The notes under the pieces were generated by a model, which had not been told where the DNA came from, made no database searches, and saw only the letters and a program-made list of their open reading frames with translations. From a virus (lineage: Duplodnaviria > Heunggongvirae > Uroviricota > Caudoviricetes): a DNA stretch of 64,000 nucleotides. This document shows, one piece after another, positions 6,408 to 53,175 of this stretch (its first letter is position 1; the number at the start of each line of letters is the position of its first letter). The stretch is from positions 35,854 through 99,853 of IMG/VR virus record IMGVR_UViG_3300009678_000054, one strand, 5' to 3'. A program made the translations under genes and the position numbers.

Positions 6408-9400
6408 TTATTCGTTAGTATCTTCTCCTTTTCCGGCACTTGGTTTCAAAAACCAAATGCTATTTCTACCATAGAACTGTAACAATCTTTCAGGTTCAAC
6501 AGTGTTTATATACTGACGATAAAGAGGCAAAGCACGTCCCCATTTAACTGCAGCTTTATTTTGACCAACCTGGTAACCAGGACCAGAACGCTCGTACTCA
6601 GCCATTGGGTCAGAAATAGATTGAGACACCGCATCCCACACCTTGTCTACAGTGGATACCGATGCAGCCGGGTTAGTTACAACCTTAGCCAGGTCCATTG
6701 TACCAACAATCGGAGTATATTGAACCCCTTCAGAGATCAATCTACGGCTTATCAGAGCCATGTAATCATTGAATTCTTCTTCATCGTCATCGTCGTCAAA
6801 CGCTTTAAACGAGAACATAAGAAGGGCCATAGCAGCGAAATCTGCAGCTATCTTACGGAAAGCGTATTTCTCATCTTCAGTTAATTGAGCCATACGTTTT
6901 TGCTCGATAATACTTCTAACCTGAGTTACTAACCCGTTTATAAAAGTACGATAATAACCTTCAGTATAATTACCCGTTTGATAGTTTACATATCCTTTAC
7001 GGTAACGAGAAGCAAATCCTGTATAAATGTGCTTTCTAAACATTAGAAGAAGACTACCCCACCATTGACGCTGCAGCAAAGCTTTGTCCAACTTGTTATA
7101 GTTACCGTGCATTTGCGTATTCACGAATTTTACCGTTTGACGGAAATCTTCATCATCCTGCGTTGTCCACTTTGTATCAGACATTTTAAGCTGACCTTTG
7201 TATTCACGCTCTTTAGCCTCGTATAAGGATATTTCCTCGCCACTATTCAGCTTCACTTTTTTATGTAGCATCATCGCAATAAGCATCTGAGTTTGTACAT
7301 AATGTTCACCACCTTGCTGCATGAAGAAAAAATGATTTCTACGGAACAATTTATTTGCCAAGCTACCAGAAATCTTTTTTCCAAGCTCATCATAAAGTTC
7401 ACCCTGGATAGCATCATAATCAATTAACATTTCAGAAATGAATGATGGTTTACCACCTTTTAAATCTTCAAAGAAATCACCTTTACCAAGTGCAGTGAAA
7501 TAAATACCTTCAGCTTTTAACGCATTACCTATATTGAAATAACGACCTGCCGCACCTTCAACAAAGGTTTCGAGCTTCGCACGAATTATGTTAGTTACAC
7601 CAGCAACCGGGTTAAGAGCAAGTTGCTGGAAAGCTGTAATCAAACCAAGTGTATTGGCAGACTTTTTAACTGACCAGTTCCAATCCTTACGCAACATAGT
7701 TACTTTGTAATCTTTTAACTTACGTTCTTCACCAACTTTGAAACCATGATAGTCAAGATCAGGAATACCTATATGCTCAGACATGTCACTGAAACCTTTA
7801 ATGATTTCAATCTTACCATTCTTATCTTCAACTTTGAACTTAGAATTGAACATTTGAATAGCTGCCTTTTTCATAGGCTGACCATATACAACATCGTTTA
7901 GGAATGAATCAAGTTGTTCGTTAATTCTTGCAGCATCAACCTGCATAGCTTTACGTTCTGCTTTAGATAACGCTTTCAAACCGTTAGACGTAAGTTTAAC
8001 AACTTGGCGAGAATCAATACTCAAAGATGCGTTACCACCAATGAAATTTTTCAAAATGTTTACGTGAGGTTCAATCTGAGAAATAGAATTGTATTTTTGA
8101 GCAGACACAGCGTACTTAACAACTGAATTCAGTAGATCAAAACTTAAATCATTATCCTCAACCATTCTAGTAAATGGTAAAGGAACAGTTCTTCTTTCCT
8201 TCAAGTTATTTTTCTGACTGAAATAAACCTGGTCATCTTCTCCAACAAACAATCTTATTTTCTCAAGTATATCCTGAGCAACTTTACCCTTCTCAACCTT
8301 TGCTGTTATAATACTTCTCTGAGGAATAATACCATATTTTAATCCAGCCTTACCAGCAAGTTCATTAGCTTGTTTATATGAACCATAAAGTTCTTTAAAC
8401 AATGGGTCAGATTGCAATGCTACAAAATCAGGATTCTTATACGTAGTAGCCGGGATATAACCATTACCCGTTTTCACAGTATGAACAGAATACCAAGCGT
8501 CACGAGCTTTCTTCCAGGCAGCGTATTTAACAACATCGTTCTTTGATGGAGCGACACCTATCTTTTCTTCCATTGTTCTTTTCGCCTTGTAAAATTCATC
8601 CCACTTGTATTCTTCGTGGAAAGCCCAACGTTTTACATAATGATACTCAGGTTCACCTTTTTGATTTACACCTTTGTATTCATATGAATCAGCTTGACGC
8701 ATATATTTTGCATAGAAATCAAAATGGTCCTTATTAGTATTGAATACAGGAAGACCTCTGGTTCTTCGTACCAATTTTGTAAGTTTATCCTGAATAGTTA
8801 AACCTTTCTTTAAAGCCCCGGTATATTCTTCTACAACTGATCTAGCTATCAACGAAGACAACGGGTCACGAGAATGCAACAGTGGTCCTAAGAATTGCGT
8901 TACAGCACTAGCGTCCTTTTTGGCAGTTGTAATATAAGTAGCAAGTTCACGCTTGAAAGCTTCTTCTAAAATCTGACGCTTACTCGGAGTTAAATTATTA
9001 GCTTGCATTTCCTTTTGTACAGCTTCATACGTAGCTTTAGATACGATGTTAAAAGGTTTATCAGTCGCAAGAGCCTGGTTGATCGCACTATTTGCGTGAG
9101 GGAATAACCAGTTTACAATAAGTTCCTTTGCATAAGCTTTGTAATCATTTATCAAAGCAGCTTCACGACGATAATTCTTTTTCAAATTACCAATGCTATC
9201 TTCAGCATCAGGAAATTCATCTAGTACAGAAGTAATAAGCAAATCAACATCCTCGTACAAAGTAATGCAATCTTCTATCTCATTTAATAACTGACTCAAC
9301 TTAGCAAGATCATCCTTTGATTTTGTTCTCTTAGCATCGAAAGCATCTTTGAATTCTTGAAACTTTTCATTCAATTTTTTCAAATTGACAGCAGACGATA

Positions 9401-12400
9401 TAATAAAATTGTCAATAGCTTTCAAGTCTCTTGGGTCAGCAGCCAATAACTCAGCAATCTTACCAAAGAAAAACTTTCTTCTTAAAACATCTTCACTCAT
9501 GTTTTTTGTACGTAAAACTGCATCAACCTGTAACTTCTGACGAACGTTATTAATAACTTCATCAAATGTATTTGAAAGTTTAGAAAAACGCTCAGCGTGA
9601 TTTTCAGAACTTACCTTTTTATTCAGATCGAATACAAAAGACGGATTAACTATCAAGTCAGCAAATTCCTGCATACTCATGTTGCTACGGAAATTCTGAG
9701 TCATGATACCCATCTTCGCAAGTGTAGTTTTTAGCCAATCAATAAACTTACCGAACAATGTTTTACCTTCATTGTTTTCTAAATCTTGACGAGCAGACAT
9801 ACGACCAAGCTCCATTACCAAAACTTCATCCCACTGGTCAGATTCACTAAGCTCTGGATAAGCAGTTTTAACGTATTCAAATGATTCTTTACCGCTCTCA
9901 CTATTCTTAACTTCTTCCATTAACGCATTATACAGTTCAGGGTTATCCTTTTTAATAACGTCAATGAAAGGGTGAATAACCTCGTGGAATGGGGTATCAG
10001 GGCTTACATAAGCTTCGTTGATTGTGATAACACCGTTTGCATATTTACCACGCCAGAAACTTCCTGGTTCGTTTACCACAACCACTTTCACACCGAATTT
10101 GTTTTTCAACATACGAATAACGTTATCCAATGAGAAACGTTTCTTCTGTTCAGCAGTAAACTGTTCTTCATGTAACTTCTGAAACTCTACATCAGTATCA
10201 ACAGGTTTCCAACCAATATCTTCAGGTTTTTCTTGCTCTGAATTGTTCGCAGTTACTTTGGCCAAAACTTGTTCATCGAACTCAACTTTAACGGCTTGCG
10301 GATGAGGTTTAACACCTATACGTTCTTCACCAATTTCTTCGGATAACAATGAAAATTCAAGAGGTAATAATCCTATCTTAGCAACAGGATATTGAGGGTC
10401 AGCAAGAGGTGTATCGTTTTCATCAATAACTCTTGTAACCTCACCTGCTTCATTTCTAGCTTGTGGTCCAAACTCGATCATACTTGTATGACCACGAGTT
10501 TCTACAGTCATAGCTCTACGTGCCAACGGTGTATACATACGAGCATGAACATCCCAGGCGTTTTCTTCACCAATAGGACCAAAACCATTTCCTCTTTCAG
10601 CATGTCCGAACAGATCATGCACACCTCTAAATACGTCATTAACCAATAACGCATTTCCTTTAAGATCAGTTAAACCACTTTCTTGTAAGAAAGGATTCTC
10701 TTTTCTTTGTTGATCGGTGATCGCATTTGGTCCGTAATACTTATTAGTTGACAGGATATAAAAATGTTTATTATCTCTAATGTCAGCCATTGCGCTTGGA
10801 GCATCAGCATAGGGTTCACCAGCACCATCAAACAATTCAAAAGTATATCCTTTACTTATAAGGAAATTATATTGGTCAATTGTTTCATTTGCGAAAGCTT
10901 CATATGATGCCTTTACTTCAGGATTATTAGGCTCATCTTTCATCGCCATGTAAGCATCGGCGATCTTCTTTCCAAATTGTACATCAATAGTATATATCTT
11001 AACACCAGGAGAAATATTAAGTCCTTTTTCACTCTTGTATTCATCAGCAATAGCCTTAACTTCTTCGTTAGGTTCTGTAAATAAAGAACTATCTGCAGTC
11101 AACTTACTTTGAGAAGAACTATATTTAGATGTAATTGTACCACCAATAGACGCTAAAAACTCATTAACTTTTTGTTGTGAATCAGAAGCAATATATCCTT
11201 TGAAATTTCCAGCATCCCAGTAAGCAGCAACATGTTTGAAATTAGATTTCAAATTATCAATCAAATCCTGTTCAGATGTCTGGTTAGTTTTCATACCAGC
11301 AAGAACTTGCTCGGCCTTTTCAGTAATAGCTTCTTGTGGGAATGATTGAAGTTTATAAGCATCTTTCTTCTTTTCATTAGCCAACCATTCTTCTTCAGAT
11401 TCAGGAACAATCTTTTCCTCAAGTAATACAATACCATCAGGTTTAATATATTTACTTTTTATTTCTTTAATGAACTGTTTGCGTTCAGGAGAAATAAATT
11501 GAAACACCATGCTCTCATGTACCACATCAGCTTTTTCTGCAGGAACATGTTTAGGATAAGTAACACCAGTTTCTTCGTCAGTATATGATTCATAGAAAGC
11601 TTCTTTCACATAATCACTACCTTCTACAGGATTAGCGTTATGCGCTTTCTGCATTTCTTCATTAACGTCCAGGTTAATTGATTTTATTTTACCTTCAGAA
11701 CCGAGAGTGATTGCTTTAACAAAACCACCTTCAGAACCACCAATGTCATAAATTAATCCACCATTCGCATACATGTTTTGCAATGCAGCACCAACTTTGA
11801 TTTGTGTTTCTCTAAATGTAGGAATAGACGCAGCTATATGATTATCAAAATTACCTTTGAATTTATCATATATCTTTTTAAACTTTGCCTGAAGTATATT
11901 AAATGATAATATCGGAGACCATTCTTTTTTAGGTTTAAACTTTTCACTTTTACCGCTAACGACATCAGAAAAGAATTCCTGAGTCTTACCAGTTTTATTA
12001 ACATCCAGTTTTACATCGTCTTCAACCACTCCGGGAGTTGTCTCTCCGGTTGGTAACTGTTGTCCCCGTATATCACCGCTATCGAGTTCTCTCTGTTGAA
12101 TGGCAGCTTCAGTTGTTCGCACACCGCTTTTATTTGCTCCTGTGTTGGTTGGTCTATTCCACTGAGGATTTCCGAAGCTGAATCGTCCAATAATGTTTGT
12201 GATTGCTTGCTCATGAGTTAACTTTTTATTTTGAACTTGTTCCCAAATTTTATTTATTTCATCACGGTTAGCATCCGTCTTATCTGCTTCTTTAATCAGC
12301 AAACGAATAGCTTCCCATGTAATACTTTGTACTTCACGAGGACGTAAACCTTTCTCTGCGCCTATTTCCTGATATGCTTGCTTTATAACGGCATAAATAG

Positions 12401-13934
12401 GTGAACCACCTGATCTGAACAGATTCATTGCGCTTGCTTCTTCTGCACTGATAACATTTAAAAAAGCTGCACCCATAGCATGAGTGTCAACAGTAACCTG
12501 ACCTTTGTCAGAATTTGGACTTACAATGTTATTATAGAAATTACGAACCTTGTTACCTTTACCTATTTTCTCTGAAATGTTTTCAATAGTCGGGTTTTGG
12601 AAGATAGAAATAGCTTTGAATATTTCTGCTGTGCTACCCCAGGCAAAACGTGTCAATCCACCAACATCGGTCTTAATACCAGATGCTTCACCTTCTGGTG
12701 TCACAACTTGCACTTCAGGACCATGTACAGTCATATCAATAACACGAAGAACGTTTGCTGCAATATCATTATACACGGTATTGTTATCAGCAAGACCTAG
12801 AATATCACCGATTGATTTATCAGTAAGTTGTTCTTTTAGCGCACGAACAACTCCTTCGAAAGGTTCACCTTTACTAAGATTAATAGCGTTATCGTACATA
12901 GCTGAACTAACAGGAGTAGTCATGTGATTTTTCAAAACATTCATTACACGATCTGCACCACTAATATTATTAAACCATTCGTTCTGTGGAGAAAGAACAG
13001 CAAGAATACCAGCAGTAGCTTCAAGTGGTAAACCATATGTTGTAGAAAAGTTCTGAGCAATACGGTTCGCACCATCGTACCAATGACGTGAACGAGCAAT
13101 AAGATTTTTATCCCATGCTTCGAATAATGAACCTAGATTTTTCTTCAAAGCTTCTTTGAACTCAGTGAACGCCTGGTCAGCAAGTGAAAACATGTCATTC
13201 TTAATCTTTTCCTTTGCTGCCTTATCAACTTTTGAGCTACCAAGACTTTCAAATTTTGTTCTAAGAGTTGCAAGCTTTTTCGCAATGGATTTATTTGCAT
13301 AAGGAAGCTTTACATTATTCTTCATTGACGCAGGGCCAGGAATAAAACCTTCAGCAAACCATTGAGCATTTCTAAGGTATGCTGAACCCATTGTCTTATT
13401 GGAATTACGAAATTGTTTTACATCATCAGCAACATCTCCCAATAGATTTGATTCATCGAACGTAGTAGGAAGCGTTATACCCTCTTTAATATTTTCATTA
13501 CCCGTAATAAGCTTTATACCTTTAACTGCACCAGGTGTACCAGAAAGTTTAAAGATACCACCAAATGTATCATTCACCGCTTCAAGGAAACGAATGTTCG
13601 CCTGTTCAACTTCTGTAGCAGAAATAGGAGCAGGTGCTTCAGAAATACGACTACCGTTCACAACATAATATGTATCACCATACTTTCGTACAATACCGTT
13701 GAAACCTTTAAGCAGGTCTTCAACAGTAGGTGCTTTCAAATTACGCATATGAACAATCGCCGATTTGAATTGTTTCATCTTAGTACCACGAATCATAGTC
13801 ACAGCTTCATCAAGAGTTGGATATTTATATCCATTCTCAACTGTTAAACTATGAGCCATGTTGAAACCTAATTCTTTTTCTAAAACCTTAAAGTTCGGAT
13901 GATTGATATTTACGCATTGCGCCATTACGGACAA
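6408..13934 (-). CDS. giant multidomain polyvalent-type virion protein (2508 aa) with Rossmann methyltransferase-like and HExxH zincin-like modules
   Basis: Uninterrupted 7.5 kb ORF. SAM-MTase motif I-like LIYDIGGSEGGFVKAI with downstream acidic motif NLDVNEE. Zincin motif HEVIHPFIDVIK followed by a conserved E. A second candidate metal site is HDLFGHAERGNG. Start overlaps the stop of the 1705-aa gene. Confidence 0.7.
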   Translation of the reverse strand: MSVMAQCVNINHPNFKVLEKELGFNMAHSLTVENGYKYPTLDEAVTMIRGTKMKQFKSAIVHMRNLKAPTVEDLLKGFNGIVRKYGDTYYVVNGSRISEAPAPISATEVEQANIRFLEAVNDTFGGIFKLSGTPGAVKGIKLITGNENIKEGITLPTTFDESNLLGDVADDVKQFRNSNKTMGSAYLRNAQWFAEGFIPGPASMKNNVKLPYANKSIAKKLATLRTKFESLGSSKVDKAAKEKIKNDMFSLADQAFTEFKEALKKNLGSLFEAWDKNLIARSRHWYDGANRIAQNFSTTYGLPLEATAGILAVLSPQNEWFNNISGADRVMNVLKNHMTTPVSSAMYDNAINLSKGEPFEGVVRALKEQLTDKSIGDILGLADNNTVYNDIAANVLRVIDMTVHGPEVQVVTPEGEASGIKTDVGGLTRFAWGSTAEIFKAISIFQNPTIENISEKIGKGNKVRNFYNNIVSPNSDKGQVTVDTHAMGAAFLNVISAEEASAMNLFRSGGSPIYAVIKQAYQEIGAEKGLRPREVQSITWEAIRLLIKEADKTDANRDEINKIWEQVQNKKLTHEQAITNIIGRFSFGNPQWNRPTNTGANKSGVRTTEAAIQQRELDSGDIRGQQLPTGETTPGVVEDDVKLDVNKTGKTQEFFSDVVSGKSEKFKPKKEWSPILSFNILQAKFKKIYDKFKGNFDNHIAASIPTFRETQIKVGAALQNMYANGGLIYDIGGSEGGFVKAITLGSEGKIKSINLDVNEEMQKAHNANPVEGSDYVKEAFYESYTDEETGVTYPKHVPAEKADVVHESMVFQFISPERKQFIKEIKSKYIKPDGIVLLEEKIVPESEEEWLANEKKKDAYKLQSFPQEAITEKAEQVLAGMKTNQTSEQDLIDNLKSNFKHVAAYWDAGNFKGYIASDSQQKVNEFLASIGGTITSKYSSSQSKLTADSSLFTEPNEEVKAIADEYKSEKGLNISPGVKIYTIDVQFGKKIADAYMAMKDEPNNPEVKASYEAFANETIDQYNFLISKGYTFELFDGAGEPYADAPSAMADIRDNKHFYILSTNKYYGPNAITDQQRKENPFLQESGLTDLKGNALLVNDVFRGVHDLFGHAERGNGFGPIGEENAWDVHARMYTPLARRAMTVETRGHTSMIEFGPQARNEAGEVTRVIDENDTPLADPQYPVAKIGLLPLEFSLLSEEIGEERIGVKPHPQAVKVEFDEQVLAKVTANNSEQEKPEDIGWKPVDTDVEFQKLHEEQFTAEQKKRFSLDNVIRMLKNKFGVKVVVVNEPGSFWRGKYANGVITINEAYVSPDTPFHEVIHPFIDVIKKDNPELYNALMEEVKNSESGKESFEYVKTAYPELSESDQWDEVLVMELGRMSARQDLENNEGKTLFGKFIDWLKTTLAKMGIMTQNFRSNMSMQEFADLIVNPSFVFDLNKKVSSENHAERFSKLSNTFDEVINNVRQKLQVDAVLRTKNMSEDVLRRKFFFGKIAELLAADPRDLKAIDNFIISSAVNLKKLNEKFQEFKDAFDAKRTKSKDDLAKLSQLLNEIEDCITLYEDVDLLITSVLDEFPDAEDSIGNLKKNYRREAALINDYKAYAKELIVNWLFPHANSAINQALATDKPFNIVSKATYEAVQKEMQANNLTPSKRQILEEAFKRELATYITTAKKDASAVTQFLGPLLHSRDPLSSLIARSVVEEYTGALKKGLTIQDKLTKLVRRTRGLPVFNTNKDHFDFYAKYMRQADSYEYKGVNQKGEPEYHYVKRWAFHEEYKWDEFYKAKRTMEEKIGVAPSKNDVVKYAAWKKARDAWYSVHTVKTGNGYIPATTYKNPDFVALQSDPLFKELYGSYKQANELAGKAGLKYGIIPQRSIITAKVEKGKVAQDILEKIRLFVGEDDQVYFSQKNNLKERRTVPLPFTRMVEDNDLSFDLLNSVVKYAVSAQKYNSISQIEPHVNILKNFIGGNASLSIDSRQVVKLTSNGLKALSKAERKAMQVDAARINEQLDSFLNDVVYGQPMKKAAIQMFNSKFKVEDKNGKIEIIKGFSDMSEHIGIPDLDYHGFKVGEERKLKDYKVTMLRKDWNWSVKKSANTLGLITAFQQLALNPVAGVTNIIRAKLETFVEGAAGRYFNIGNALKAEGIYFTALGKGDFFEDLKGGKPSFISEMLIDYDAIQGELYDELGKKISGSLANKLFRRNHFFFMQQGGEHYVQTQMLIAMMLHKKVKLNSGEEISLYEAKEREYKGQLKMSDTKWTTQDDEDFRQTVKFVNTQMHGNYNKLDKALLQRQWWGSLLLMFRKHIYTGFASRYRKGYVNYQTGNYTEGYYRTFINGLVTQVRSIIEQKRMAQLTEDEKYAFRKIAADFAAMALLMFSFKAFDDDDDEEEFNDYMALISRRLISEGVQYTPIVGTMDLAKVVTNPAASVSTVDKVWDAVSQSISDPMAEYERSGPGYQVGQNKAAVKWGRALPLYRQYINTVEPERLLQFYGRNSIWFLKPSAGKGEDTNE

Positions 13935-16900
13935 TTTTTTAAATCGTTAAGGAAATCCTCAATATTACTCCACATACCAGCATGATACTCATCAATGATG
14001 TCTTTTGACAGTTCCGCAATTGTTTGAGGGAAGGCGGCAAATTTACCATTAATCGCTGACACCTCATCTTCCGAAAGAGAATTTAAGAAAGAATTAACTT
14101 TCTCGTCATTTGTTTCAGAATGCAGGTCCGATGGGTCAAGACCGAATTGTTCTATACTTTCCACGTCCTCAGCCGTATAAACCTTACCCATGATCTCAGC
14201 ATCTTTCAGATCAATATTTATAGTACCCTCGGAAACCTTTGGAACAACCTGCAGGTTTGAATTTTTAAATACAGTAGTCTTTACCGAAGCTGTAAACTTA
14301 TCACCCAGGTTTACTACAAAATCTTCGTTTAAGTCAACAGGGATATTACCCTTTTCACGTAAACTGATTATCTTAAAATCACCATTAGGTGTCTCTACAA
14401 TGCCAACCCAGTTAGTAACCTTCTTACCGTTCTTATCTGTAACTGCGGATTTAATAGAACTGAGATTATTATTGGCCCAACGGTCCAAATCCTGCAATTT
14501 TTGTTTCGCAGTCTTTGTCGCTTTGTTCTTATCCATTACAACACGAATACTGTCAAACTCATCAATATTCGCAACAGTAACTACATTCTTTCTATTACCA
14601 ACCGTTACACCTTTGAAATCAAGATCATTCAACGTAGGACGTGTTTCATTTGATTTCATAGTATCAAGTTCACCATAGCTCAAAGTTACATCGAATAAAT
14701 CCTGAAGGTCTTTGCTATCAATAATGATTTCTTTCTGACCACTTTCTTCAAGTTTTCCTATTAAATGAGCGTAAACAGATGAATACGCTTTTGCAAGCTT
14801 CTGGAAATCTCCATATGTCTGAGCAGCGTTACCTGTTAATTCAGTATATGTCGCCTGGTCTGTAGCTGCACTCAAAACATGATACTTACCTTGCTTATCT
14901 CTATATGCAAGAGCAGGTATCGGTGACAAGTAACCAATAAGTTCTTTATCGTAGAACAGGGACATTGATTTTGGACTACGAAGCGCATACAAATTATCAA
15001 ACTCTACACGGTTTCCAAAACTATTACGATAAGCCGCTTTGTTAAGAGTTGATTTATTATCGTTACCAGATAATATTTCTTGTTGCTTATCATAAGATGA
15101 TTGAAACTCGCCCTGCAAATCGGCTATACGCAAAGTCATTTCCTTTTTGATATTCGCAAACGTTTCATTTCTGAAAAGGAAATTCAGCTTATCACGAGCT
15201 TCCTTCATTGTTGCGGGAATATACGTGTTAGCGAAATACGTGAACAGATCAAACGCATCAAACTTACTACCTGAACGAATTGGTTTGAAAATTTTCATCT
15301 TGATCTCAACATTACGTTCAGGAACAAAACGAATCTTCTGTTTTAACTTAGCACTTTCAATAAAACCATTAGGGTCTGCTTTATCATAAGTAATAGCAAA
15401 TGGAAACATTACACTGATCTCATCAGGAACAATACCATACTGGTTTGCGAATAGATTACGATATGCAGAAAGACGCTTACCATCAAGTTCACGAATACTT
15501 ATACCTTTGCCCGATTTACCGTACACACGATAAACTTCAGGTCTACGTGCAGATATTTCGTAAATCTTAAAGTTACCTTTTTTATCTACACCTAGTAAAT
15601 CAATTTCACCAGCTACCTTCAAATTCTCATCAAATACTATAACATTGCTATCAATGATTTCAATACCCTGATTTTGCAAATTTTGTCTAATAGCGGTTAA
15701 TTGCTTAACCATATCATTCAAAGCTTCTTCAGAAATCTTTGAAACCATGTCTTTATAAAACTCATCCGTTAATTCGTTTGCAAAGAAAGCCTTTACTATT
15801 GCATCAACAGTATAACCTTTGTTTGCAGCAGACTGGTCAACAGTAACATTATCACCGATGATCTCAGAAACCTTACGATAATATTCACCATCCACCTCGT
15901 AATGAGTATTAAATTTCTTAGAACGTTTTTTATTCTCAGAAATCTTGTTCAATACTTCTTTATAATCAGCCTTATCTTCAGGTTTGATATTTTTTGATTC
16001 ATCAACCTTTACTTCATTTTTAGCTTCATCAAATTTCTGTTCACGAATTTTCTCAATTGTATCAAGGCGATCATCAATTTCTTCCAGGCGATCTTCTTCC
16101 GCTTTGGTCAAAGTTTCTTCCTTAGAATTCAAATATTCCTTTTCTTCGTTCAACTGCTGTTCTTCTTCACGAAGCTCATCTTCATTCTTCTTATCAGCTT
16201 TCATCTTCTCCTTCTTCTCAGGGCTTATCGGTTCTTCACCTTCAGTTTTAGGACCTGTAGGACCATCAGGTAAATTCTCATCAGGTAGATTACCCTGAAT
16301 TTCATCACTATCGTCATTAACCACTTGTTCCTGTAATTCCATCTTTCTTCTTCCGTAAACAGTGTCCCAATAACGCTCACCATATTTAGCATCAGAAATA
16401 CGATTGTAAACATTTAACGTGGCATTACGAGCCATGTCAATATCCTTAACGATTCGTTCCTTTCTAACTTTTCCGCTATCGTAAGATAAACGATTTCTTT
16501 CCGGTATCTCATAACGAAAAGAACCATCCGCATTCTTGCGAAGATTCTTAACTTCATCCTTGTTATCAATTAGAAATTGTTTTAAAGCTGCTTCTGCATT
16601 AGTCATTTCAGTTACAGCCTGACTCAAAGTTTCTTCATCTACGGCCTGTATTTCTTCACGATGAACTGGCTTTTGCTTTTTAGGTGTTGTAATTTTAGTA
16701 CCGTTACCCAGGTCAATAGTCTCTGTATCTGAATCTGGTAAACCTCTTACAGTAGACGGTAGATACAGCGTTTGAGTTGAAAGCATATCAACACGTTTCT
16801 TAGCTGAAAGATAATTGTTATGCAAATCATTTAAACTATCAACCATACTATCTGTTGGAGAAGTATAACGTGCAGCAAGTTCACTACCTACAGCTTCAAC

Positions 16901-19042
16901 TTCATTCTGAGTCTTATCTCTTAATTCGGCAAGATGCGCCGCTCTTGTAGATAAGAAATATAATGTTTGTTTCATCAAAGAAGCCTTAGTACCACGCTTA
17001 TCATCATTTTTAATATTTACAATAAAATTTTGTTGAACATTATCGTATATATTTTTATGAAGTTCTATCTTCTTTTTTACGTAATCCAAACGCTTAGCAT
17101 TCTGAGTCTGGTCAGATGTAAGACCCATTAACATCAAATCTTCTCCTTTGAAATTCTTAGCGTTGTTAACCTTATTCAAAAGAACATCAACCATTCCGTT
17201 GTCAGCGTAAGCTTTTACTAAACGAGCGATATTATCGTTATCAACAATATCGTGAAGTAAATTCATATTCTTAACCTTCAAATTATCAGCAAGCTCAGTC
17301 ATACTAAGCGTTTTGTTCATTGCTGACATGAAAGAAATAACATTATTGGTGTTAATCTTTGGGTTACCGTTATCGTCAACCGCCAAAGTCCCATCGGGAT
17401 TTACTTCATAGAAATTCTTAGATGTGTTTCTAAAACTGCTTACGGCAGCATTGTAATTAGTAACATCTCTTTTTAAATTTCTCAATTCTGAATAACGACC
17501 ACGCACAGACATACCACCACCTATGATACCACCTATGCCTATACTCATAGAAGCATCTCTGTCATCTCCCGATAACGCAGAACCAGTTTGGTTTATATAT
17601 TTATTTAAAGCACGACCAATATTATTATAAAAACCTTCATCAATAGTAGCCGGGTCTTGATTACTACGTTCAATAGCAAGTTGAATATTTTCTTCCCAAA
17701 AACCTTCAATAAGTACCCCTTTACCAGCAGCTTTCAAATAATCAAAACCTTGCTGTCCAAATGTACGCTTTACAATTTCAGCATCGGATAATAATCCAGC
17801 TTCATGACGTACATATTTATTCGAAGCGTTACGTGTAGAAAGCAAAGAACCTTTTCCAAACAACATCTTTACTTCCCACAGGTTCGATGGTCCAAGAACC
17901 AACATATTCATCAAGAAACTATTTCTTCCAGCACGAGCGGTAATATCACGAACTTGTTCAGGTGTGTATTTAGCAGTACCGTCAAAATTAACTTCTTTTA
18001 ATAATTTATCAGCCAATTCATTTTTCAACGCAGCCGCTTCAGTTAATGACTCCGAAGCAGTAAGCATAAGGGTATTGATACCCATATTCATTCCCTTTGC
18101 CAAAGGACTATTACCGATAGTTTTAGCCATATCAGTAACCACTGCTCCTGCTTCACGAGAAAGAACGCCTGGGATTACGGGTGCAGCTTCAACCGTAGCA
18201 GTAGCACCACGAGATAACATCGCTGCTTCTGACATACCGCTCAAACCTTCAGCAGAAAGTGCAGCAGCTTCATCAGCGAATTGCAATCCACGAAGTGCGT
18301 TAATACCACGTACAGCCGCACCACCCAAGTTTAATCCATTAAATATATTACCTGTTGCGTATGCAGAAAGTAAAAATGCAGCACCGTCAACTACATCACC
18401 TTTCCAAAAATCAAGATCGGTAAACATACGTGAAAAGAAACCTGCATCACGATCACTAGCTTCATTATAAATAGGACGATAAATATTATCTACATCTTCA
18501 GCAGCATCTCTACCCCATGAAGCAAGACCGTTATCAGACGCTCCTGCAATCCAGTCAGCGAAATTACTTCCACTATGGTAGTTGTTATTCTTATTACCTA
18601 AGCCTACTAATCCACCTAAGAAGCCAATACCTTGAACTGCATAAGCTCCTGTTTTATCTAATAAACGAATAACGGTATTGAAAGTTTCATCCCACCATGT
18701 ACGATTCTTAGCCCACAAATCCTCATTATCACGACCAATAAGAAATCCTAAATCCTGATAATTATTACCAGATTGATAATCGTCGGAATCCGAAAGAAAC
18801 TTTTGATTGCTGTAATAATCGGCTTCGGCTGCAGGTGCGCCAGGAACTATACCACGACCAGCAAAAGGATTATTCGCACCTTGCATGAAAAACTTCCAGG
18901 TGCTACTACCCTGACCGACACCTGTAGGACTTAATGTCTCAGGCGCAGTAACTCTCGGTATAAAAGCATTGCTGAGGTTAATCTGTAAGAATTGATGCGG
19001 AACAAAGGGTTGTTCCGGCGAATATTTACCTATATCTGGCAT
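13925..19042 (-). CDS. giant virion/internal protein (1705 aa): Gly-rich N-terminus, long acidic coiled-coil region, possible PD-(D/E)xK-like module
   Basis: 5.1 kb ORF. Low-complexity E/K-rich stretch (EEEQQLNEEKEYLNSKEETLTKAEEDRLEEIDDRLD). Candidate nuclease-like segment VIVFDENLKVAGEIDLLGVDKKGNFKIYEIS. Confidence 0.6.
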   Translation of the reverse strand: MPDIGKYSPEQPFVPHQFLQINLSNAFIPRVTAPETLSPTGVGQGSSTWKFFMQGANNPFAGRGIVPGAPAAEADYYSNQKFLSDSDDYQSGNNYQDLGFLIGRDNEDLWAKNRTWWDETFNTVIRLLDKTGAYAVQGIGFLGGLVGLGNKNNNYHSGSNFADWIAGASDNGLASWGRDAAEDVDNIYRPIYNEASDRDAGFFSRMFTDLDFWKGDVVDGAAFLLSAYATGNIFNGLNLGGAAVRGINALRGLQFADEAAALSAEGLSGMSEAAMLSRGATATVEAAPVIPGVLSREAGAVVTDMAKTIGNSPLAKGMNMGINTLMLTASESLTEAAALKNELADKLLKEVNFDGTAKYTPEQVRDITARAGRNSFLMNMLVLGPSNLWEVKMLFGKGSLLSTRNASNKYVRHEAGLLSDAEIVKRTFGQQGFDYLKAAGKGVLIEGFWEENIQLAIERSNQDPATIDEGFYNNIGRALNKYINQTGSALSGDDRDASMSIGIGGIIGGGMSVRGRYSELRNLKRDVTNYNAAVSSFRNTSKNFYEVNPDGTLAVDDNGNPKINTNNVISFMSAMNKTLSMTELADNLKVKNMNLLHDIVDNDNIARLVKAYADNGMVDVLLNKVNNAKNFKGEDLMLMGLTSDQTQNAKRLDYVKKKIELHKNIYDNVQQNFIVNIKNDDKRGTKASLMKQTLYFLSTRAAHLAELRDKTQNEVEAVGSELAARYTSPTDSMVDSLNDLHNNYLSAKKRVDMLSTQTLYLPSTVRGLPDSDTETIDLGNGTKITTPKKQKPVHREEIQAVDEETLSQAVTEMTNAEAALKQFLIDNKDEVKNLRKNADGSFRYEIPERNRLSYDSGKVRKERIVKDIDMARNATLNVYNRISDAKYGERYWDTVYGRRKMELQEQVVNDDSDEIQGNLPDENLPDGPTGPKTEGEEPISPEKKEKMKADKKNEDELREEEQQLNEEKEYLNSKEETLTKAEEDRLEEIDDRLDTIEKIREQKFDEAKNEVKVDESKNIKPEDKADYKEVLNKISENKKRSKKFNTHYEVDGEYYRKVSEIIGDNVTVDQSAANKGYTVDAIVKAFFANELTDEFYKDMVSKISEEALNDMVKQLTAIRQNLQNQGIEIIDSNVIVFDENLKVAGEIDLLGVDKKGNFKIYEISARRPEVYRVYGKSGKGISIRELDGKRLSAYRNLFANQYGIVPDEISVMFPFAITYDKADPNGFIESAKLKQKIRFVPERNVEIKMKIFKPIRSGSKFDAFDLFTYFANTYIPATMKEARDKLNFLFRNETFANIKKEMTLRIADLQGEFQSSYDKQQEILSGNDNKSTLNKAAYRNSFGNRVEFDNLYALRSPKSMSLFYDKELIGYLSPIPALAYRDKQGKYHVLSAATDQATYTELTGNAAQTYGDFQKLAKAYSSVYAHLIGKLEESGQKEIIIDSKDLQDLFDVTLSYGELDTMKSNETRPTLNDLDFKGVTVGNRKNVVTVANIDEFDSIRVVMDKNKATKTAKQKLQDLDRWANNNLSSIKSAVTDKNGKKVTNWVGIVETPNGDFKIISLREKGNIPVDLNEDFVVNLGDKFTASVKTTVFKNSNLQVVPKVSEGTINIDLKDAEIMGKVYTAEDVESIEQFGLDPSDLHSETNDEKVNSFLNSLSEDEVSAINGKFAAFPQTIAELSKDIIDEYHAGMWSNIEDFLNDLKNCP

Positions 19043-25448: not shown

Positions 25449-27083
25449 TTATTTCGTAATACCAAGATTTTTCAGACTTTGACCTTTTTTTGAATCAATT
25501 ACCATCAAAGTATCACCTTTTGGAAATTGTTGATTAACGTACTGCATATCTTGTTTACGACAATTAATACAACCGAAACTTTGATTAGCGTTAGTTGTAT
25601 TATAATATTTACTACGAACTTTTGGGTCGTAAGTAGTGTGCATAGCTAAAGCAAAAGCTTCTGGACTAGAACCTTCATAATTCAAAGGACTCATATCAAA
25701 ACCAGGGATACCGTAAATATTATCAGCCGGGTTTAAATAATAAGCACCCATAGGAGTATTTCGAAAATCAGGATTTGCTTCAAGCTGCTGCATAGAATAC
25801 TTATTGTAATTACCTTCAGTATTCTTACCAGTAAGAACAGGGAATTGCTTTTGCACTTTGCCATTTCTTATGACATAACCTTGATTAGTTCTCTTATCAA
25901 CAACTACACCAGATTCCAATTTAGATTTATTTGCATCTTTTTTTACAACTTTAGCTGCGCCATATCCAGGAACTTGTAATTTTCCAGCATTTATTTCCCT
26001 AAAAAGCCTGGTATTCTGTTCAGCCGTTCCAGAATAATTGCCAGCAAAATAATCATTAAACAATCTCTTACGATTAGCATAAGAACCATCAATACCATGC
26101 GAATTTAATAAGTCAACTATGCTTCCACCAGCTTGTGTTTTATACTTTTTAGAAAGTCTTTTTTCATGCACACCGCCTGTCATATACGCAACATCATCTG
26201 CTCCATGTAAAACTGTCTCATTACCTGTTTCATCTCTAACGTATACGGGTTGACCATTGTCCAACCCACGTATAGGATTTGTCCCTTGTAATGGTATGAA
26301 AAGATTATCAATAGAACTGTCGTTCAGTCCTAGATATTGTTGTTCCGGCGTTACTGCAACGTTTCCACCAGATTGTTTTATATATTTAGAAATAGGAATA
26401 TTGTAGGATTCAGGTTTATCCTTCAATTCTCCTTTCAAATATTTTCTTGCTCCGCCCTCACCACGAAAATGCACTAACTTTGCAAGTTGCATATCTGTCA
26501 AAGCTGTCTTGATCTCTTTTCTTATCTTTTGAACTTCGGGAAGGAGATAAGTTTTTTCATAAAAAGAATAATATTTTTCCTGGGCTGTTGGACTATCTAA
26601 AAACTCTTTTTGAGATTTAACACCTGTAACCTTCATAATACTTTTACCCCAATCTCCCCATAGAAATTGATATTTTCCTGTAGCTGAACTATTCTTATTA
26701 GTAGCACTATACTTACCACCGCTTTCGATTGCTGCAATATTTTCACCTAAAGTGCTTTTAGTTTTTCCGCCACCCCCGCCACCACCGCCATGACCCGGCC
26801 CTGTAGTAGGACCTGTAAATATACCACCTTCTCCGTCAAACACAAAATTATAAGCATCATCTTCCATCATTTCATCAGAACTATATTCCTCGGTAGGTTG
26901 TTCATATTCTGTTTCATCAGGGATAACAACATTATTGTCAGTTTCATCTTCCATATCTACCTCATCGAAATATCCAGTATGTTCATCACGATTACCAAAA
27001 AGCTTACGATTAAAATCAGCAAGATTTTGATTGATAAACGCATCAATTATTGAATAATCCTGTATTACTTCAAATTCGTCCAT
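25449..27083 (-). CDS. virion-associated peptidoglycan-remodelling protein (544 aa): lytic transglycosylase/lysozyme-like domain plus C-terminal L,D-transpeptidase (YkuD)-like motif
   Basis: SLT-like segment GENIAAIESGGKYSATNKNSSATGKYQFLWGDWG (catalytic E-S followed by GxYQ). Gly-rich linker GPGHGGGGGGGGK. C-terminal H..SFGCINCRK resembles the YkuD active site H-x(n)-S-x-G-C-[IV]-R. Confidence 0.6.
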   Translation of the reverse strand: MDEFEVIQDYSIIDAFINQNLADFNRKLFGNRDEHTGYFDEVDMEDETDNNVVIPDETEYEQPTEEYSSDEMMEDDAYNFVFDGEGGIFTGPTTGPGHGGGGGGGGKTKSTLGENIAAIESGGKYSATNKNSSATGKYQFLWGDWGKSIMKVTGVKSQKEFLDSPTAQEKYYSFYEKTYLLPEVQKIRKEIKTALTDMQLAKLVHFRGEGGARKYLKGELKDKPESYNIPISKYIKQSGGNVAVTPEQQYLGLNDSSIDNLFIPLQGTNPIRGLDNGQPVYVRDETGNETVLHGADDVAYMTGGVHEKRLSKKYKTQAGGSIVDLLNSHGIDGSYANRKRLFNDYFAGNYSGTAEQNTRLFREINAGKLQVPGYGAAKVVKKDANKSKLESGVVVDKRTNQGYVIRNGKVQKQFPVLTGKNTEGNYNKYSMQQLEANPDFRNTPMGAYYLNPADNIYGIPGFDMSPLNYEGSSPEAFALAMHTTYDPKVRSKYYNTTNANQSFGCINCRKQDMQYVNQQFPKGDTLMVIDSKKGQSLKNLGITK

Positions 27084-30000
27084 TATTTTATAGAATAAGT
27101 TAGGTTATCAATTTTGAATTTACTAATAATCTTGTAAGCACTTGTTTTATCATTAATCAAACGTATTTTAAACCATTGACCTTTGATACGTGATAAATCA
27201 AAATCACCTTTCTTATAGTTGAATGCTAAACCATTCAAATTTTTATCAACATTATTCGCATCGAAAATCCATCTTGGAATTTCAGAACTTTCTTTCACCA
27301 AGTTATAAAACTGATTAAATCTCCATGCGTAATTAGCAATAGCTACTTCAATTTCCCAGTTAGTTATATTTCTTACAGGATACTTACCAACCTCGCTCAG
27401 ATTATTCTTGTCGCTCTTAACCAAATTTAATAAACCTGAATTATAAATATCATTGTAAATAATAGCTTTATTGAAACCAGGAAGCTTACTTCTTACAACA
27501 TAATCATATTCGTTCTGGTATCTACGAACTTCAGTATCGAATTCAACACTATTTAAAATTCTCAATTGTCCTTCAAACTTCGTTACATACTCAGCTATGA
27601 ACGGATATAGTGTACCATAGAACACTTGATAACTTGCATTTGTCAGGTTATGCAACCACAATCCATCCTTACCAGAACCAAAGAAATCAATCGCATCAAT
27701 GTAGTATTCTGGTTTATACGAGTGATAAGAAACCCATGACTTCGTAAAGAAGTTATAAGATATAGTCCATGACGCATCCTTCCAATAACGTTTGTCTCCA
27801 AGTCCAACAGTAACAGGTTGATTATCTACCGTTCTGAAGAATGTTTTTGTTTCAGGGTCATATTCAACACCTGTAGTACTATTTCTAAGCTTGTAATCAC
27901 GCTTAGTCAACAAGAAACGATTATAACGTTTATCAAACGCCATACAAATACCCAAACCGTTAAAGCTATTATCAATGTCAGTCTCAGGCATATTCTGGAA
28001 ATCTCTTAACACACGGAATGGAAGATTTTCTTTAAACCAGTTCTTCATTCCATTTTTAGAAATTTCATCCAAATTTGCAGCATTCGCAGCCAGGTTAAAT
28101 ACCTGTCCACGCTTCGCATCGGGCCAAATATGACCATACTCAGTATGTAAAATAGCTTTATGTTGACTACCTACATAACCTAATGTAGTCTCAGCAAACT
28201 CCTGTGGTGGATTCTTAAACACACCGCCTGTACCTACTTGAACCGTGTCACCGTCAATAGGAATAAGATTATATGCTTTGAATACTAACGTGCTGTTTAC
28301 AGTACGAACAAGCACTGTTCCATTTTCAATACCTTCGATAGATGTTATCTTACCTTTAGATAACGGGAAATCATAGTAATCATTTGCTTTATAAGTTAGC
28401 CAATTACTATCAGTAGCGTATATAATCCTGTTTGGATGTTCTATTCTGCAATCACGGCTTGGTTCGAAATTAGGACCGTCAATACTGAATGGAGTTTCCT
28501 TATTTTGCTTAGAATAATCTTTATTGTAAGCGTAGAAATTATCTTCGCTAATAGGAACGTTTTCTTCCTGCATCCAAAAATCCAAGTCATTTTGAGCCGG
28601 ATAAAAAGCTTTCTCTTTCAAGTTTTCTCCATGACGATAATCTACGTTAACATCTGATTCAACAAGGAAATAAGGAATACCGTAATGATACAAATAAATG
28701 AAACCATTTTGGTAGAAGAACTTATTGGTGCTACAATCACGAATGCTCTTAGGACGACCCATGAATGTTGCAGCACCAGTCGGTGTTACGATAGCCAGGA
28801 TGTCAAGTATATTATCAATCTCCGAACCTACACCAAGTGTATTATTGTAATAATGTCTTGGAACAGCCAGGTTAGGAAAATTCTCATAATTGAAATCAGT
28901 ACCATCAGGTAATCTAAACGTGTTCGCAAGGAAGTACGGAACTTTTGTCTTAAATGCAAAACGATTGATAAACGTATCGCCACCATAAACACCACGACAA
29001 TCATCGTTATCCGCATCCATTTCAAATATACAAGAGTCAGTTGGTAAATATTCAATATTAAATATATTACCATATTGATCTGGCACAAAATTCTTTATAG
29101 CAGCATAATACGATGAAATAGGTTTATTAACACGTTTGTCAAAATCACAAGACACTGCTGCATCTTCAAGCGTGAATCGACTTGTATCAGTTATTCCAGA
29201 AGATACACCTGCATCAGGGAAATCCACACCTGCATAACGCAGGTATAGAGAAGATTCACGATGCCAGTTATTTATCTTTGTACCAACGAATTGACCAGGT
29301 ATTGTATCAGATGGTTCAGATACAATTGAATTCTCACCTTTCAAATAACTCGATGCGCTGATTCTTCTTATCTTATTTCCACTGTTAGGAACATCATCGA
29401 AAGAATTATACTTACCGACAGAATGATATTGTGCTGACCAATCACGGTAAGGCGTAAGCGATTCAATTAAATCTAAAATAATTTTCGCTTCAGCAAGAAC
29501 ACGGCTCATAAAGTTAGCTACACGGCTAAGGAATATAAGTGGGAACAATGGTAACAATGCAGGTTGTCTTGTCGCAAGGAATATAGGATTATACCAATCC
29601 TTATATCTTCCCTGAATTGTTTTTAATGTCACCTCGTGAGCAGAATTGATATTAGCTGCTCTATTTGGATGCAAAATACTATCAATAGACGTATCCGGTA
29701 TCCACGCTGCACCAGGTCCAGTTACAAATGGTAAAAATGGACCAAGTACACCCGATGCCACACCTAAACCAGAAGTAATAAGACCTCTTTGACTATAAGT
29801 ATGTTCTTCTACTTCTTCTGTCTGCAATAATGCGGCTACTATACCTGCAGTCAACGCAATAACATAAGATGTATCTGACAAGAAACGTTGCTGAGCTTGC
29901 TGCGTAGATTTTGTAAAATAACCTTCTGACAAACCATATTCAACTGTCTCAAGTTTCAGCTTAGTACCTACTGTAGGTTCGCTGAAATGTGTATCAGGTG

Positions 30001-33000: not shown

Positions 33001-33091
33001 CATGGCTAAATGACAATTCATCCAATTGCATCGGATGAAAATCAGTAAGCATACCTTTTATTGTGCGAGATACTTCTTTCTTAATCGGCAT
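27083..33091 (-). CDS. giant structural protein (2002 aa) with PKD and FN3 repeats (adhesin / tail or baseplate-associated candidate)
   Basis: PKD signature DGSASTDEDGIASYFWDFVSGP. Big-like segment VNAGADQIINYLASVGLNGTVIAGTNPIVSITWTQLSGP. FN3-like segment VVLDWLDVVCATSYDIYLA..YHWYIVPKN. Confidence 0.6.
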   Translation of the reverse strand: MPIKKEVSRTIKGMLTDFHPMQLDELSFSHALNAIVEDFDGNGFPMIQNEPSNLLCTDFPSGFDVIGFVNIVEQNRIIWFLKNPTTGANEIGETLGLQNCRDFASDGLIKGCDDCAAVKLAESTPLETITQSPCCTYHLIDNQDCFNFSKSFPINSVEYRITDCGIDIFFGDDFNSRRWVQFEYTNDDVTQPLVIRKEFKTIISFNTPPCEDPVYGINIDCNKMNLQPNVTTPCIEFIDLVTGGSNKAGVYQFFIAFADRFGNKRTSYVSSTNIIPIRTKDFTFATDYPTDRAIALEIRNLDEFGPYQYYKLAVAKTINNFTSFFEVGTFPVTQSKIYYTGNEEAEVRLTEGDIFQRFPFYKSAGNVTSSNNILFWASLKEFSKPNLQRVANGIGLQWQTIAIPEAVYRNARNVAKFRGYMRDEVYAFGIQFIYNNGEESPVYHIPGRPAIESDLEIVTGDDVIVENNCDDCAEPVEPEEQITIPVEALNETDCPCEDSGPELTLDNSVQAETCPLTPHTDTGCTPALTTGTPPSVNAGADQIINYLASVGLNGTVIAGTNPIVSITWTQLSGPKTVIIDNAGIANTFFYEYDTGTFVFQLCAIDTVGNIVVDTVQFDVTVPANIAPIADPGPDKIVTLPVTISYLDGSASTDEDGIASYFWDFVSGPATPVISNPNVAYTNVTGLTAAGTYEFELTVTDIRGCESIASVLIYVVDDPCDSVPCCTTLMYPINGSITPSFETVVLDWLDVVCATSYDIYLAADGDPLVLIGNAVDSTFIVNNLDPNTIYHWYIVPKNAIGDAVDCDDCFRSFVTPTEFSVENCERQRWEVYNTGTIEGGDLQQYEECEETCYQFGNFSYWESTERYPNNPDIWGDLCGLPIRHHKFPDSFITHIHDGENATQDFTRNNIVYPIGVKVDHDSVRAALTAAITGGIVSAEEAARIVGYRIVRGNRFRNKSIVAKGLLYDMNQYRRVKDGEFFDSQIIYFANYPYNDLRSNPFVTDNFANYDNHNDPEGADLPFIKSKRYTFHSPDTHFSEPTVGTKLKLETVEYGLSEGYFTKSTQQAQQRFLSDTSYVIALTAGIVAALLQTEEVEEHTYSQRGLITSGLGVASGVLGPFLPFVTGPGAAWIPDTSIDSILHPNRAANINSAHEVTLKTIQGRYKDWYNPIFLATRQPALLPLFPLIFLSRVANFMSRVLAEAKIILDLIESLTPYRDWSAQYHSVGKYNSFDDVPNSGNKIRRISASSYLKGENSIVSEPSDTIPGQFVGTKINNWHRESSLYLRYAGVDFPDAGVSSGITDTSRFTLEDAAVSCDFDKRVNKPISSYYAAIKNFVPDQYGNIFNIEYLPTDSCIFEMDADNDDCRGVYGGDTFINRFAFKTKVPYFLANTFRLPDGTDFNYENFPNLAVPRHYYNNTLGVGSEIDNILDILAIVTPTGAATFMGRPKSIRDCSTNKFFYQNGFIYLYHYGIPYFLVESDVNVDYRHGENLKEKAFYPAQNDLDFWMQEENVPISEDNFYAYNKDYSKQNKETPFSIDGPNFEPSRDCRIEHPNRIIYATDSNWLTYKANDYYDFPLSKGKITSIEGIENGTVLVRTVNSTLVFKAYNLIPIDGDTVQVGTGGVFKNPPQEFAETTLGYVGSQHKAILHTEYGHIWPDAKRGQVFNLAANAANLDEISKNGMKNWFKENLPFRVLRDFQNMPETDIDNSFNGLGICMAFDKRYNRFLLTKRDYKLRNSTTGVEYDPETKTFFRTVDNQPVTVGLGDKRYWKDASWTISYNFFTKSWVSYHSYKPEYYIDAIDFFGSGKDGLWLHNLTNASYQVFYGTLYPFIAEYVTKFEGQLRILNSVEFDTEVRRYQNEYDYVVRSKLPGFNKAIIYNDIYNSGLLNLVKSDKNNLSEVGKYPVRNITNWEIEVAIANYAWRFNQFYNLVKESSEIPRWIFDANNVDKNLNGLAFNYKKGDFDLSRIKGQWFKIRLINDKTSAYKIISKFKIDNLTYSIK

Positions 33092-53100: not shown

Positions 53101-53175
53101 CTCCGCAAATTACAACAATTTTTGTACACAACGGAATTTGTAATCAAAACTGGTGATATTTATAATCAAAATGGA
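53101..53175 (-). promoter_or_regulatory. AT-rich repeated element (copy A) upstream of the portal gene; promoter candidate
   Basis: About 65 nt similar to 60355-60420 (ATTACAACAATTTTTG ..12-13 nt.. TTnTAATCAAA..TGnTGATATTT). Lies in the intergenic gap between terminase and portal. Confidence 0.4.

Follow-up and report, generated by a model that had tools for sequence, protein, structure and literature searches.

The gene that closes the structural and cargo block of a crAss-like phage (IMG/VR record IMGVR_UViG_3300009678_000054) codes for a protein of 2505 residues, which is likely to be a capsid-packaged cargo protein of the gp65/gp49 family that acts as a scaffold for an array of polyvalent-type effector domains. 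Our analysis covered a window of 64 kb (positions 1-64000; 35,854 to 99,853 of the record) of a genome of ~100-120 kb. The whole coding sequence (2505 codons and a stop) occupies 6408..13925 of the minus strand, on which all the features of the gene given below lie, and residues are numbered from the ATG at 13925-13923. Five separable conserved modules share this single polypeptide, at least one of them with the fold of an S-adenosylmethionine (SAM)-dependent enzyme, and BLAST of the protein against 129 retrieved homologs revealed sharp borders between the modules. Three cassettes, DUF7178, CmoA-like and HDxxGH, appear to have been spliced between an N-terminal domain and a zincin-like domain.

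Judged by its sequence, the region from aa 1212 to 2505 is the ortholog of gp65 of Cellulophaga phage phi14:2 and of gp49 of crAss001. Residues 1884-2485 are homologous to gp49 and residues 2041-2475 to gp65, at 23-26% identity (phmmer in a small database, E 1.9e-31 for gp49 and 1.5e-18 for gp65; tblastn in a phage collection, about 1e-25), and homology to a 2748-aa protein of the cyanophage Lbo-JY46, which infects Leptolyngbya, extends over aa 1257-2484. A profile of aa 1212-2400 retrieved 3139 representative proteins, 1813 of them at E <= 1e-10, from a library of 1.84 billion proteins. The best-conserved piece (aa ~2088-2400) always lies ~100 residues from the C-terminus, in proteins of 1000-5400 aa, so that members of this family as a rule pair an unvarying C-terminal module with an N-terminal load that differs widely. 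Besides the lineage-specific N-terminal domain and the zincin-like domain, the scaffold comprises a long, predicted helical middle region (aa 1401-2085; 7671..9725), recognised from the matches to Lbo-JY46 and gp65 and from the AlphaFold (AF2) model, and the conserved C-terminal domain (aa 2086-2505; 6411..7670), the hallmark of the gp65/gp49 family, which was recovered by tblastn/BLAST and by profile. The C-terminal domain contains one strongly hydrophobic helix by hydropathy, at aa 2355-2373, followed by DDDDDEEE.

Both named orthologs are virion proteins. For gp65 this comes from tandem mass spectrometry (MS/MS), according to the notes of the phi14:2 record, whereas gp49 was detected in crAss001 virions and placed by cryo-electron microscopy (cryo-EM) in the cargo zone of the capsid and not in the tail structure (PMC10172136). 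Orthologs of gp65 carry a zincin-like protease domain, and gp65, gp66 and gp67 are sometimes fused as a polyprotein that is probably cleaved (Drobysheva et al., bioRxiv 10.1101/2020.03.07.982082). The protein studied here shares with gp65 and gp49 the homologous C-terminal domain and the last place in the block, right after a gp67/gp47-like gene, and with gp65 an HExxH motif upstream of the long helical region, at colinear spacing to the C-terminal domain (775 aa here, 730 aa in gp65). It differs in that gp65 (1421 aa) and gp49 (1349 aa) lack the array of ~1100 aa formed by the DUF7178, CmoA-like and HDxxGH modules, in that gp49 lacks the HExxH motif, and in its N-terminal 130 residues, which by hhalign showed no similarity to the N-termini of gp65, gp49, gp47, gp50, gp66 or gp67. 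This N-terminal domain (aa 1-130; 13536..13925; AF2 predicted local distance difference test, pLDDT, 50-83) is kept throughout the closest subfamily, where it stands at the N-terminus of every member whichever cassettes come next, and was found nowhere else.

The same N-terminal domain, zincin and C-terminal scaffold bear different inserts in close relatives, in which cassettes are swapped, lost or reordered. P0002 has DUF7178 and the methyltransferase (MTase) cassette and lacks the HDxxGH domain; P0003-5 have DUF7178 and HDxxGH, with ~100 aa in place of the MTase cassette; and in P0006 and P0008 an unrelated cassette of ~200 aa stands between the same two domains. P0007 carries yet another cassette and P0009 an extra HExxH cassette. 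The insert consists of only the 200-aa cassette in P0121-123, which lack DUF7178, MTase and HDxxGH; of HDxxGH only in P0124, P0130 and P0138; of the MTase cassette without DUF7178 in P0135 and P0137; and of almost nothing in P0136. Such variation in the set of cassettes among close relatives is expected for parts under arms-race selection. The ~200-aa cassette is itself conserved (..GNYVF(Y/F)HYS..) and supplants the MTase cassette or the whole array in P0006, P0008 and P0121-P0124; it has no match in Pfam. Pfam searches with the alternative cassettes of the relatives (the GNYVFYHYS cassette, that of P0007 and the extra HExxH cassette of P0009) yielded nothing usable except a weak SprT-like hint (E 0.15).

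The cassettes also travel outside the crAss scaffold. DUF7178, the hub domain of this group, is common to 119 of the 120 best database hits, proteins of 1400-4200 aa, many of which also carry ART-PolyVal, LPD, InPase, RadC, lysozyme or helix-turn-helix (HTH) domains; among these 120 homologs it co-occurs with PF18760, PF18857, PF18823, PF18834, PF18838, PF18798 and PF18853. The HDxxGH domain is present in 44 of the 120, on either side of DUF7178, and only the ten closest use the gp65/gp49-type scaffold. The initial annotation had called the gene product a polyvalent-type protein, and the recurrence of DUF7178 and HDxxGH in more than 100 giant proteins with polyvalent-specific Pfam domains bears this out. 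As in the polyvalent proteins described before from phages and conjugative elements (PMC5512222), unrelated enzyme-like domains are strung around a zincin-like metallopeptidase hub in a giant polypeptide and are combinatorially shared; the predicted logic of those proteins is delivery with DNA. That work discusses neither DUF7178 nor the HDxxGH domain, and the carrier scaffold here is that of the crAss gp65 family.

Among the inserted cassettes, the SAM-dependent one is the best defined by sequence comparison. It is a class I cassette of the CmoA-like type (aa 646-940, core 690-914; 11106..11990), supported by PHROG, NCBIfam and PDB profile matches, and contains motif I, LIYDIGGSEGGFVKAI (11709-11756), with LIYDIGGSEGG at aa 724; NLDVNEE lies at aa 751. 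The cassette matches phrog_4752, 'tRNA methyltransferase', with an E value of 1.7e-18, and the NCBIfam CmoA model TIGR00740 with an E value of 2.2e-9 over positions 22-237 of 239 (216/239). When a profile of six sequences was compared with the PDB, the top three matches were all CmoA (4iwn, 4gek and 1im8; E 5e-5 to 8e-5), and the next methyltransferase appeared only at 0.065. CmoA is thus the best and only significant relative of known structure, and the match is full-length. The CmoA N-terminal cap motif, F-D-x-x-I-x-x-S-(I/V)-P, and the motif I consensus, (V/I)YD(L/I)G(C/G)S, are both recognisable. The motif I segment noted earlier is therefore genuine, since CmoA-type profiles match the region around it over its full length. 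The SAM module is CmoA-like and not a DNA methylase of the DarB type, and no helicase or N6-MTase family match was found anywhere in the protein. The polyvalent DarB dyad instead combines an adenine MTase of the EcoKI/TaqI type (NPPY/F) with LPD36 and a SWI2/SNF2 helicase. Unlike CmoA, which is a free enzyme, the SAM module is embedded in a giant, predicted virion protein. The chemistry of the module could plausibly be either carboxy-SAM (Cx-SAM) synthesis or ordinary methyl transfer. In phages, CmoA feeds DNA carboxymethylation by CmoX (the 5-carboxymethylcytosine pathway; PMC12783734), and the authors of that study also consider that CmoA might deplete SAM. The same CmoA-like module, at 50% identity, occurs in an 1829-aa protein annotated 'tRNA methyltransferase' of Maribacter phage Panino (L004; 7002-12491). 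In this phage, which is not crAss-like, the protein closes the virion block, and a large tRNA array and a transfer-messenger RNA (tmRNA) come directly after it.

The second His-rich motif of the initial annotation, HDLFGHAERGNG (aa 1103; 10584-10619), sits in a separately conserved domain, the HDxxGH domain (aa 941-1205; 10311..11105), which matches phrog_3170 with an E value of 3e-11 and is modelled by AF2 with pLDDT above 90. The predicted fold is alpha/beta. His, Asp and Glu residues are conserved in it, and the conserved positions include PY, NKH, ND-FR-VHD-FGH, GEENAW-H and ETRGQNSW. The domain exists as a stand-alone gene of ~148 codons in ~200 mycobacteriophages of the cluster C type (Catera gp103, Cali gp102), and in Microcystis phage Mel-JY33 it is joined to a 'lysin'. 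No Pfam model matched it, and Foldseek found no PDB neighbour despite the very confident AlphaFold model. InPase (PF18823) and DUF3293, two Pfam families that co-occur in the homologs, were considered as identities of the domain, but neither maps onto it.

The zincin-like core (aa 1258-1384; 9774..10154) belongs to the scaffold and is supported by invariance, by the topology of the AF2 model and by the zincin annotation of gp65. Its HExxH motif (HEVIHPFIDVIK, with HExxH at aa 1314-1318; 9972-9986) is the only one in the protein, against 0.04 expected from composition, and lies 590 residues beyond motif I, in agreement with the earlier description of a zincin signature more than 500 residues downstream. 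Ten relatives (44-81% identity) all have the segment DTPFHE--HPF unchanged. When the cyanophage protein and phi14:2 gp65 were added, H1314, E1315, H1318, F1320, N1328, P1329 and E1338 were still invariant (8 sequences). E1338 (9912-9914), an invariant Glu 20 residues downstream of HExxH, is the candidate third ligand. In the AlphaFold model of aa 935-1560, obtained from an alignment of 31 sequences (mean pLDDT 75), residues 1258-1384 form a helix, three short strands, the HExxH helix and the E1338 helix, the last two being consecutive. The best Foldseek matches, weak at E >= 0.076, were all zincins, of the IrrE/ImmA type or minigluzincins. This is probably a gluzincin-like HExxH...E domain, a zinc protease. 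The motifs singled out at the outset are thus real, all three being located in conserved domains. In crAss001, an HExxH motif (TYHEAFHVVF) is found in the gp67-like protein gp47, at aa 2157, and gp49 has none, so that this phage appears to have its zincin on another of the cargo proteins.

The region of about 650 residues at the N-terminus had been described as resembling nothing that could be named. It now resolves into the lineage-specific domain of 130 aa and a Pfam family, DUF7178, so that this description no longer holds. The DUF7178 module (aa 131-645; 11991..13535; Pfam E 1.8e-28; also phrog_3842) has a confidently predicted, mostly helical core at about aa 170-590 and ends in a linker predicted to be disordered (aa 593-645). 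Our two structure models were built on shallow alignments of 23-31 sequences. The most conserved stretch of the family reads LG-x-x-(N/H)-K459-V-R-N-F-Y-N-N-I…(V/T)-T-x-D480-T-H-A, in which conservation reaches 90% or more at K459, R461, N462, D480, T481 and H482. In the model it lies on a helix-hairpin-helix, a loop and a helix N-cap, and aa 447-483 (12477..12587; ...LG.G.KVRNFYNNI...VT.DTHA) may accordingly be listed as a candidate helix-hairpin-helix plus Asp motif. In Escherichia coli endonuclease III (EndoIII), K120 and D138 are the catalytic residues. The K459...D480 stretch resembles the EndoIII segment G116-V-G-R-K120-T-A-N…V-D138-T-H (confirmed in 2abk), a resemblance that is not statistically significant.

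At the level of the predicted fold, the list of matches to DUF7178 comprised human OGG1 (7.0), endonuclease III (6.7), AGOG (6.7), 3-methyladenine glycosylases of the AlkA/MagIII/Mag1 type (6.1-6.6), and MutY, NTHL1 and ROS1 (5.8-6.0). All the long alignments in it (>=148 residues) were to HhH-GPD glycosylases and to Qng1, a queuosine glycosylase (DUF2419) that hydrolyses a nucleoside glycosidic bond. The predicted two-lobed helical fold could be superposed on EndoIII, OGG or AlkA. No relationship to EndoIII was seen at the sequence level, either with a profile against the PDB or in Pfam at E <= 10, where PF00730 gave no match. The hhalign probability for EndoIII and DUF7178 was 0.1, Smith-Waterman alignment of the motif windows gave a z of 0.76, and when the DUF7178 HMM (hidden Markov model) was run against EndoIII among 3000 shuffles, EndoIII was not listed and did not rank above the shuffles. 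Because every sequence test failed, we hold the glycosylase reading at the fold level only, where, on the predicted structure, we lean somewhat towards it. DUF7178 also differs from the HhH-GPD glycosylases (EndoIII, OGG, AlkA, MutY) in having no detectable sequence relationship to them, in being about twice the size of EndoIII with extra inserts, and in lacking the cysteines of the Fe-S cluster. A literature search found no published mention of DUF7178, and the polyvalent-protein paper (PMC5512222) contains no mention of glycosylases.

The reading frame itself is secure. An ORF finder entry spans 6408..13934 (minus strand; 2508 aa from a TTG), and its translation contains no internal stop, as the initial annotation had claimed for this 7.5-kb open reading frame (ORF); within DNA of 37% GC, such a length is far beyond chance. 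The length of 2508 aa probably needs correction. An ATG four codons inside the TTG-started ORF, at 13925-13923, overlaps the stop codon of the upstream ORF of 1705 aa (TAATG; TAATGGCG). A database protein identical over 2505 aa (P0001, which starts MAQCVNINHP) occurs in public metagenome data on a contig of 99.9 kb, with a second copy on a contig of 119.7 kb, and the N-terminus from the ATG agrees with P0001 and with all relatives. Because of the overlap with the upstream stop, and of the N-terminus of P0001 and the relatives, we took the ATG as the start; the TTG at 13934 is probably not one. The ORF as such was therefore real, and the ATG is likely to make it 2505 aa long. GC content, overall and at third codon positions (GC3), differs little between modules, the MTase cassette being lowest with 33% GC, and these small differences are insufficient to argue for a recent transfer.

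The place of the gene in the genome fits a cargo protein of the gp65/gp49 family. The window is that of a crAss-like phage, in which terminase (53166-55244), portal (50437-53085) and major capsid protein (47341-48981) genes lie on one strand with tail genes and, in this order, giant ORFs of 2002, 544, 1223, 870, 1705 and 2505 aa. Beyond the last of these are small genes, an endolysin gene and then a recombinase gene on the opposite strand. The initial annotation had placed the gene at the end of a run of giant virion genes, and it does close the structural and cargo block, as in phi14:2. The translationally coupled upstream gene (1705 aa; 13925..19042, minus strand) codes for a homolog of the virion cargo proteins phi14:2 gp67 and crAss001 gp47. 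The order of terminase, portal, major capsid protein, gp67-like gene and 2505-aa gene parallels that of phi14:2, whose block ends with g067, g066 (the virion RNA polymerase, RNAP) and g065, and is kept in relative L005.

How might such a protein work? By our reading, it would be made late, be packaged by way of its conserved scaffold and be ejected together with the DNA, the C-terminal domain mediating both its uptake into the capsid and its passage out by the tail. The zincin may cut the protein into separate enzymes at disordered linkers, before packaging or after entry. Linkers between modules are indeed predicted to be disordered (pLDDT <50 at aa 593-645 and ~1165-1250), and cleavage is the role proposed by Iyer et al. 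for the metallopeptidases (MPTases) of polyvalent proteins and by Drobysheva et al. for gp65. In the opening minutes of infection, nucleic acids and the SAM pool would then be the targets of the freed modules, which might shield the incoming DNA or knock out defences that depend on SAM or target DNA. Ejection and anti-defence roles are what we infer from the domain content and the orthologs. A motif in the linker after DUF7178 (~12020-12080, minus strand; aa ~615-635), ..QQ(R/G)E...(D/N)(I/L)RGQQ.., recurs in otherwise unrelated polyvalent proteins, and might be a zincin processing site.

Several results weigh against this reading. The TIGR00740 score was 37.4 bits, against a curated cutoff of 193.3, which is why the cassette is filed as CmoA-like and not as CmoA, and no partner of the CmoB/CmoX type was found in the 64-kb window, where a motif scan detected no PPC/PCQ plus ENV signature of a C5-MTase in any real ORF. 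For the zincin, the fold matches were not significant (best Foldseek E 0.076, none at E <= 0.001), and sequence searches of Pfam, NCBIfam, PHROG and the PDB returned no peptidase match. Of the HExxH zincin module first proposed, the conserved motif and a zincin-like predicted core thus stand, whereas a significant fold or Pfam peptidase match does not. In addition, the family gene of phi14:2 adjoins a virion RNAP gene, and no such RNAP could be detected in the window. Finally, packaging, ejection, cleavage and activity are argued from orthologs with which the C-terminal third of the protein shares only 23-26% identity.

Other ways of accounting for the protein have to be weighed against delivery of an effector array. 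We see a small chance that it is packaged but that its modules act before or during assembly, with the zincin processing procapsid cargo, or with the SAM module and the glycosylase-like one modifying phage DNA that is yet to be packaged. Autoproteolysis ahead of packaging (P1 DdrB) and in-head processing are both discussed by Iyer et al. for polyvalent MPTases, and the Cx-SAM with which phage DNA is modified genome-wide during replication comes from phage CmoA. Genes of the late structural block, however, would be badly timed for genome-wide modification, a motif scan of the window revealed no CmoX-like C5-MTase, and delivery is the simplest account of effectors fused to a cargo scaffold.

We likewise think it unlikely that the protein is mainly an accessory of transcription, its N-terminal enzymes serving early transcription by modifying nascent RNA or template DNA and not counter-defence. 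The labels given to the orthologs, 'RNA polymerase accociated protein' for gp65 and 'putative RNA-polymerase subunit' for gp49, would favour such a role, although they stem from neighbourhood annotation; so would the co-packaging and occasional fusion of gp65, gp66 and gp67, and the native role of CmoA in RNA (tRNA) modification. A two-barrel virion RNAP of the gp66 type was nevertheless not found in the 64-kb window, either by its DFDxD/DxDxD motifs or by tblastn with phi14:2 gp66 and crAss001 gp50, nor did searches of the neighbouring giant ORFs by motif, with BLAST and phmmer and against the PDB reveal a virion RNAP. In phi14:2 the RNAP gene lies between those for gp67 and gp65; here the homologs of these two are adjacent, with no gp66-type gene beside them, and the same RNAP-less arrangement is seen beside the gene on the contig of relative L005. 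The epsilon group of crAss phages has been reported to lack the transcription block (Yutin et al.). Moreover, the cassettes are common to more than 100 polyvalent proteins without the gp65 scaffold and are dispensable in close relatives, a poor fit to a core role in transcription. That the protein is purely structural, a tail or baseplate component in which the motifs are chance matches or decayed relics, is very improbable: no Pfam enzyme family passed its threshold and the giant ORFs nearby have a structural look, the one of 2002 aa having PKD repeats, but the motifs do not vary among relatives that are 23-80% identical, the CmoA-like match is full-length and significant by profile, and cryo-EM puts crAss001 gp49 in the capsid cargo and not in the tail.

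A bolder form of the effector-array reading, which we regard as less likely than not, would have DUF7178 as a divergent EndoIII-like glycosylase/apurinic-apyrimidinic (AP) lyase, delivered from the capsid with the genome beside a SAM-converting or SAM-depleting CmoA-like enzyme, and gp65 cargo as a general plug-in scaffold for effectors. If this were true, an ejected protein would edit DNA bases and the methyl-donor pool ahead of any phage gene expression.

The crAss gp65/gp49 cargo protein with its noted zincin is already known, and so is the polyvalent-protein principle. New, as read from these sequences, are the union of both in one polypeptide and the exchange of cassettes on the gp65/gp49 scaffold; new also are a CmoA-like enzyme as a predicted virion-borne module and a fold-level lead for DUF7178. 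A precedent of a kind is gp50 of phage N4, a giant virion RNA polymerase that is packaged in the capsid and ejected, and has a zincin-like MPTase region at its C-terminus (Iyer et al., PMC5512222). Unlike N4 gp50, the 2505-aa ORF contains no detectable RNA polymerase module, whatever its type. The gp65/gp49 cargo protein can carry interchangeable enzyme modules that are also found in polyvalent proteins of unrelated phages, and two literatures, on crAss cargo proteins and on polyvalent effectors, are thereby linked. crAss-like phages are among the most abundant viruses known. The protein offers testable candidates, namely a protein-delivered CmoA-like SAM enzyme, the HDxxGH domain and the glycosylase-like hypothesis for DUF7178; if the modules act on entry, they would be candidates for new anti-defence activities.

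Three other genes of the block deserve mention. Within the virion/cargo block, the product of the ORF of 544 aa (25449-27083, minus strand) contains the catalytic domain of a YkuD L,D-transpeptidase (Pfam E 7e-13) and has PHROG matches to an L-alanyl-D-glutamate peptidase and a transglycosylase; it is probably an unusual kind of cell-wall enzyme carried in the virion. The ORF of 2002 aa (27083-33091, minus strand) matches phrog_37948, 'virion structural protein', with an E value of 5e-169, and its PKD/Ig-like repeats at aa ~595-800 are similar to KIAA0319-like PKD domains. In the middle of the structural block, a gene at 35358-36791 (minus strand) codes for an SbcD/Mre11-like DNA repair exonuclease (phrog_704, E 6e-72).

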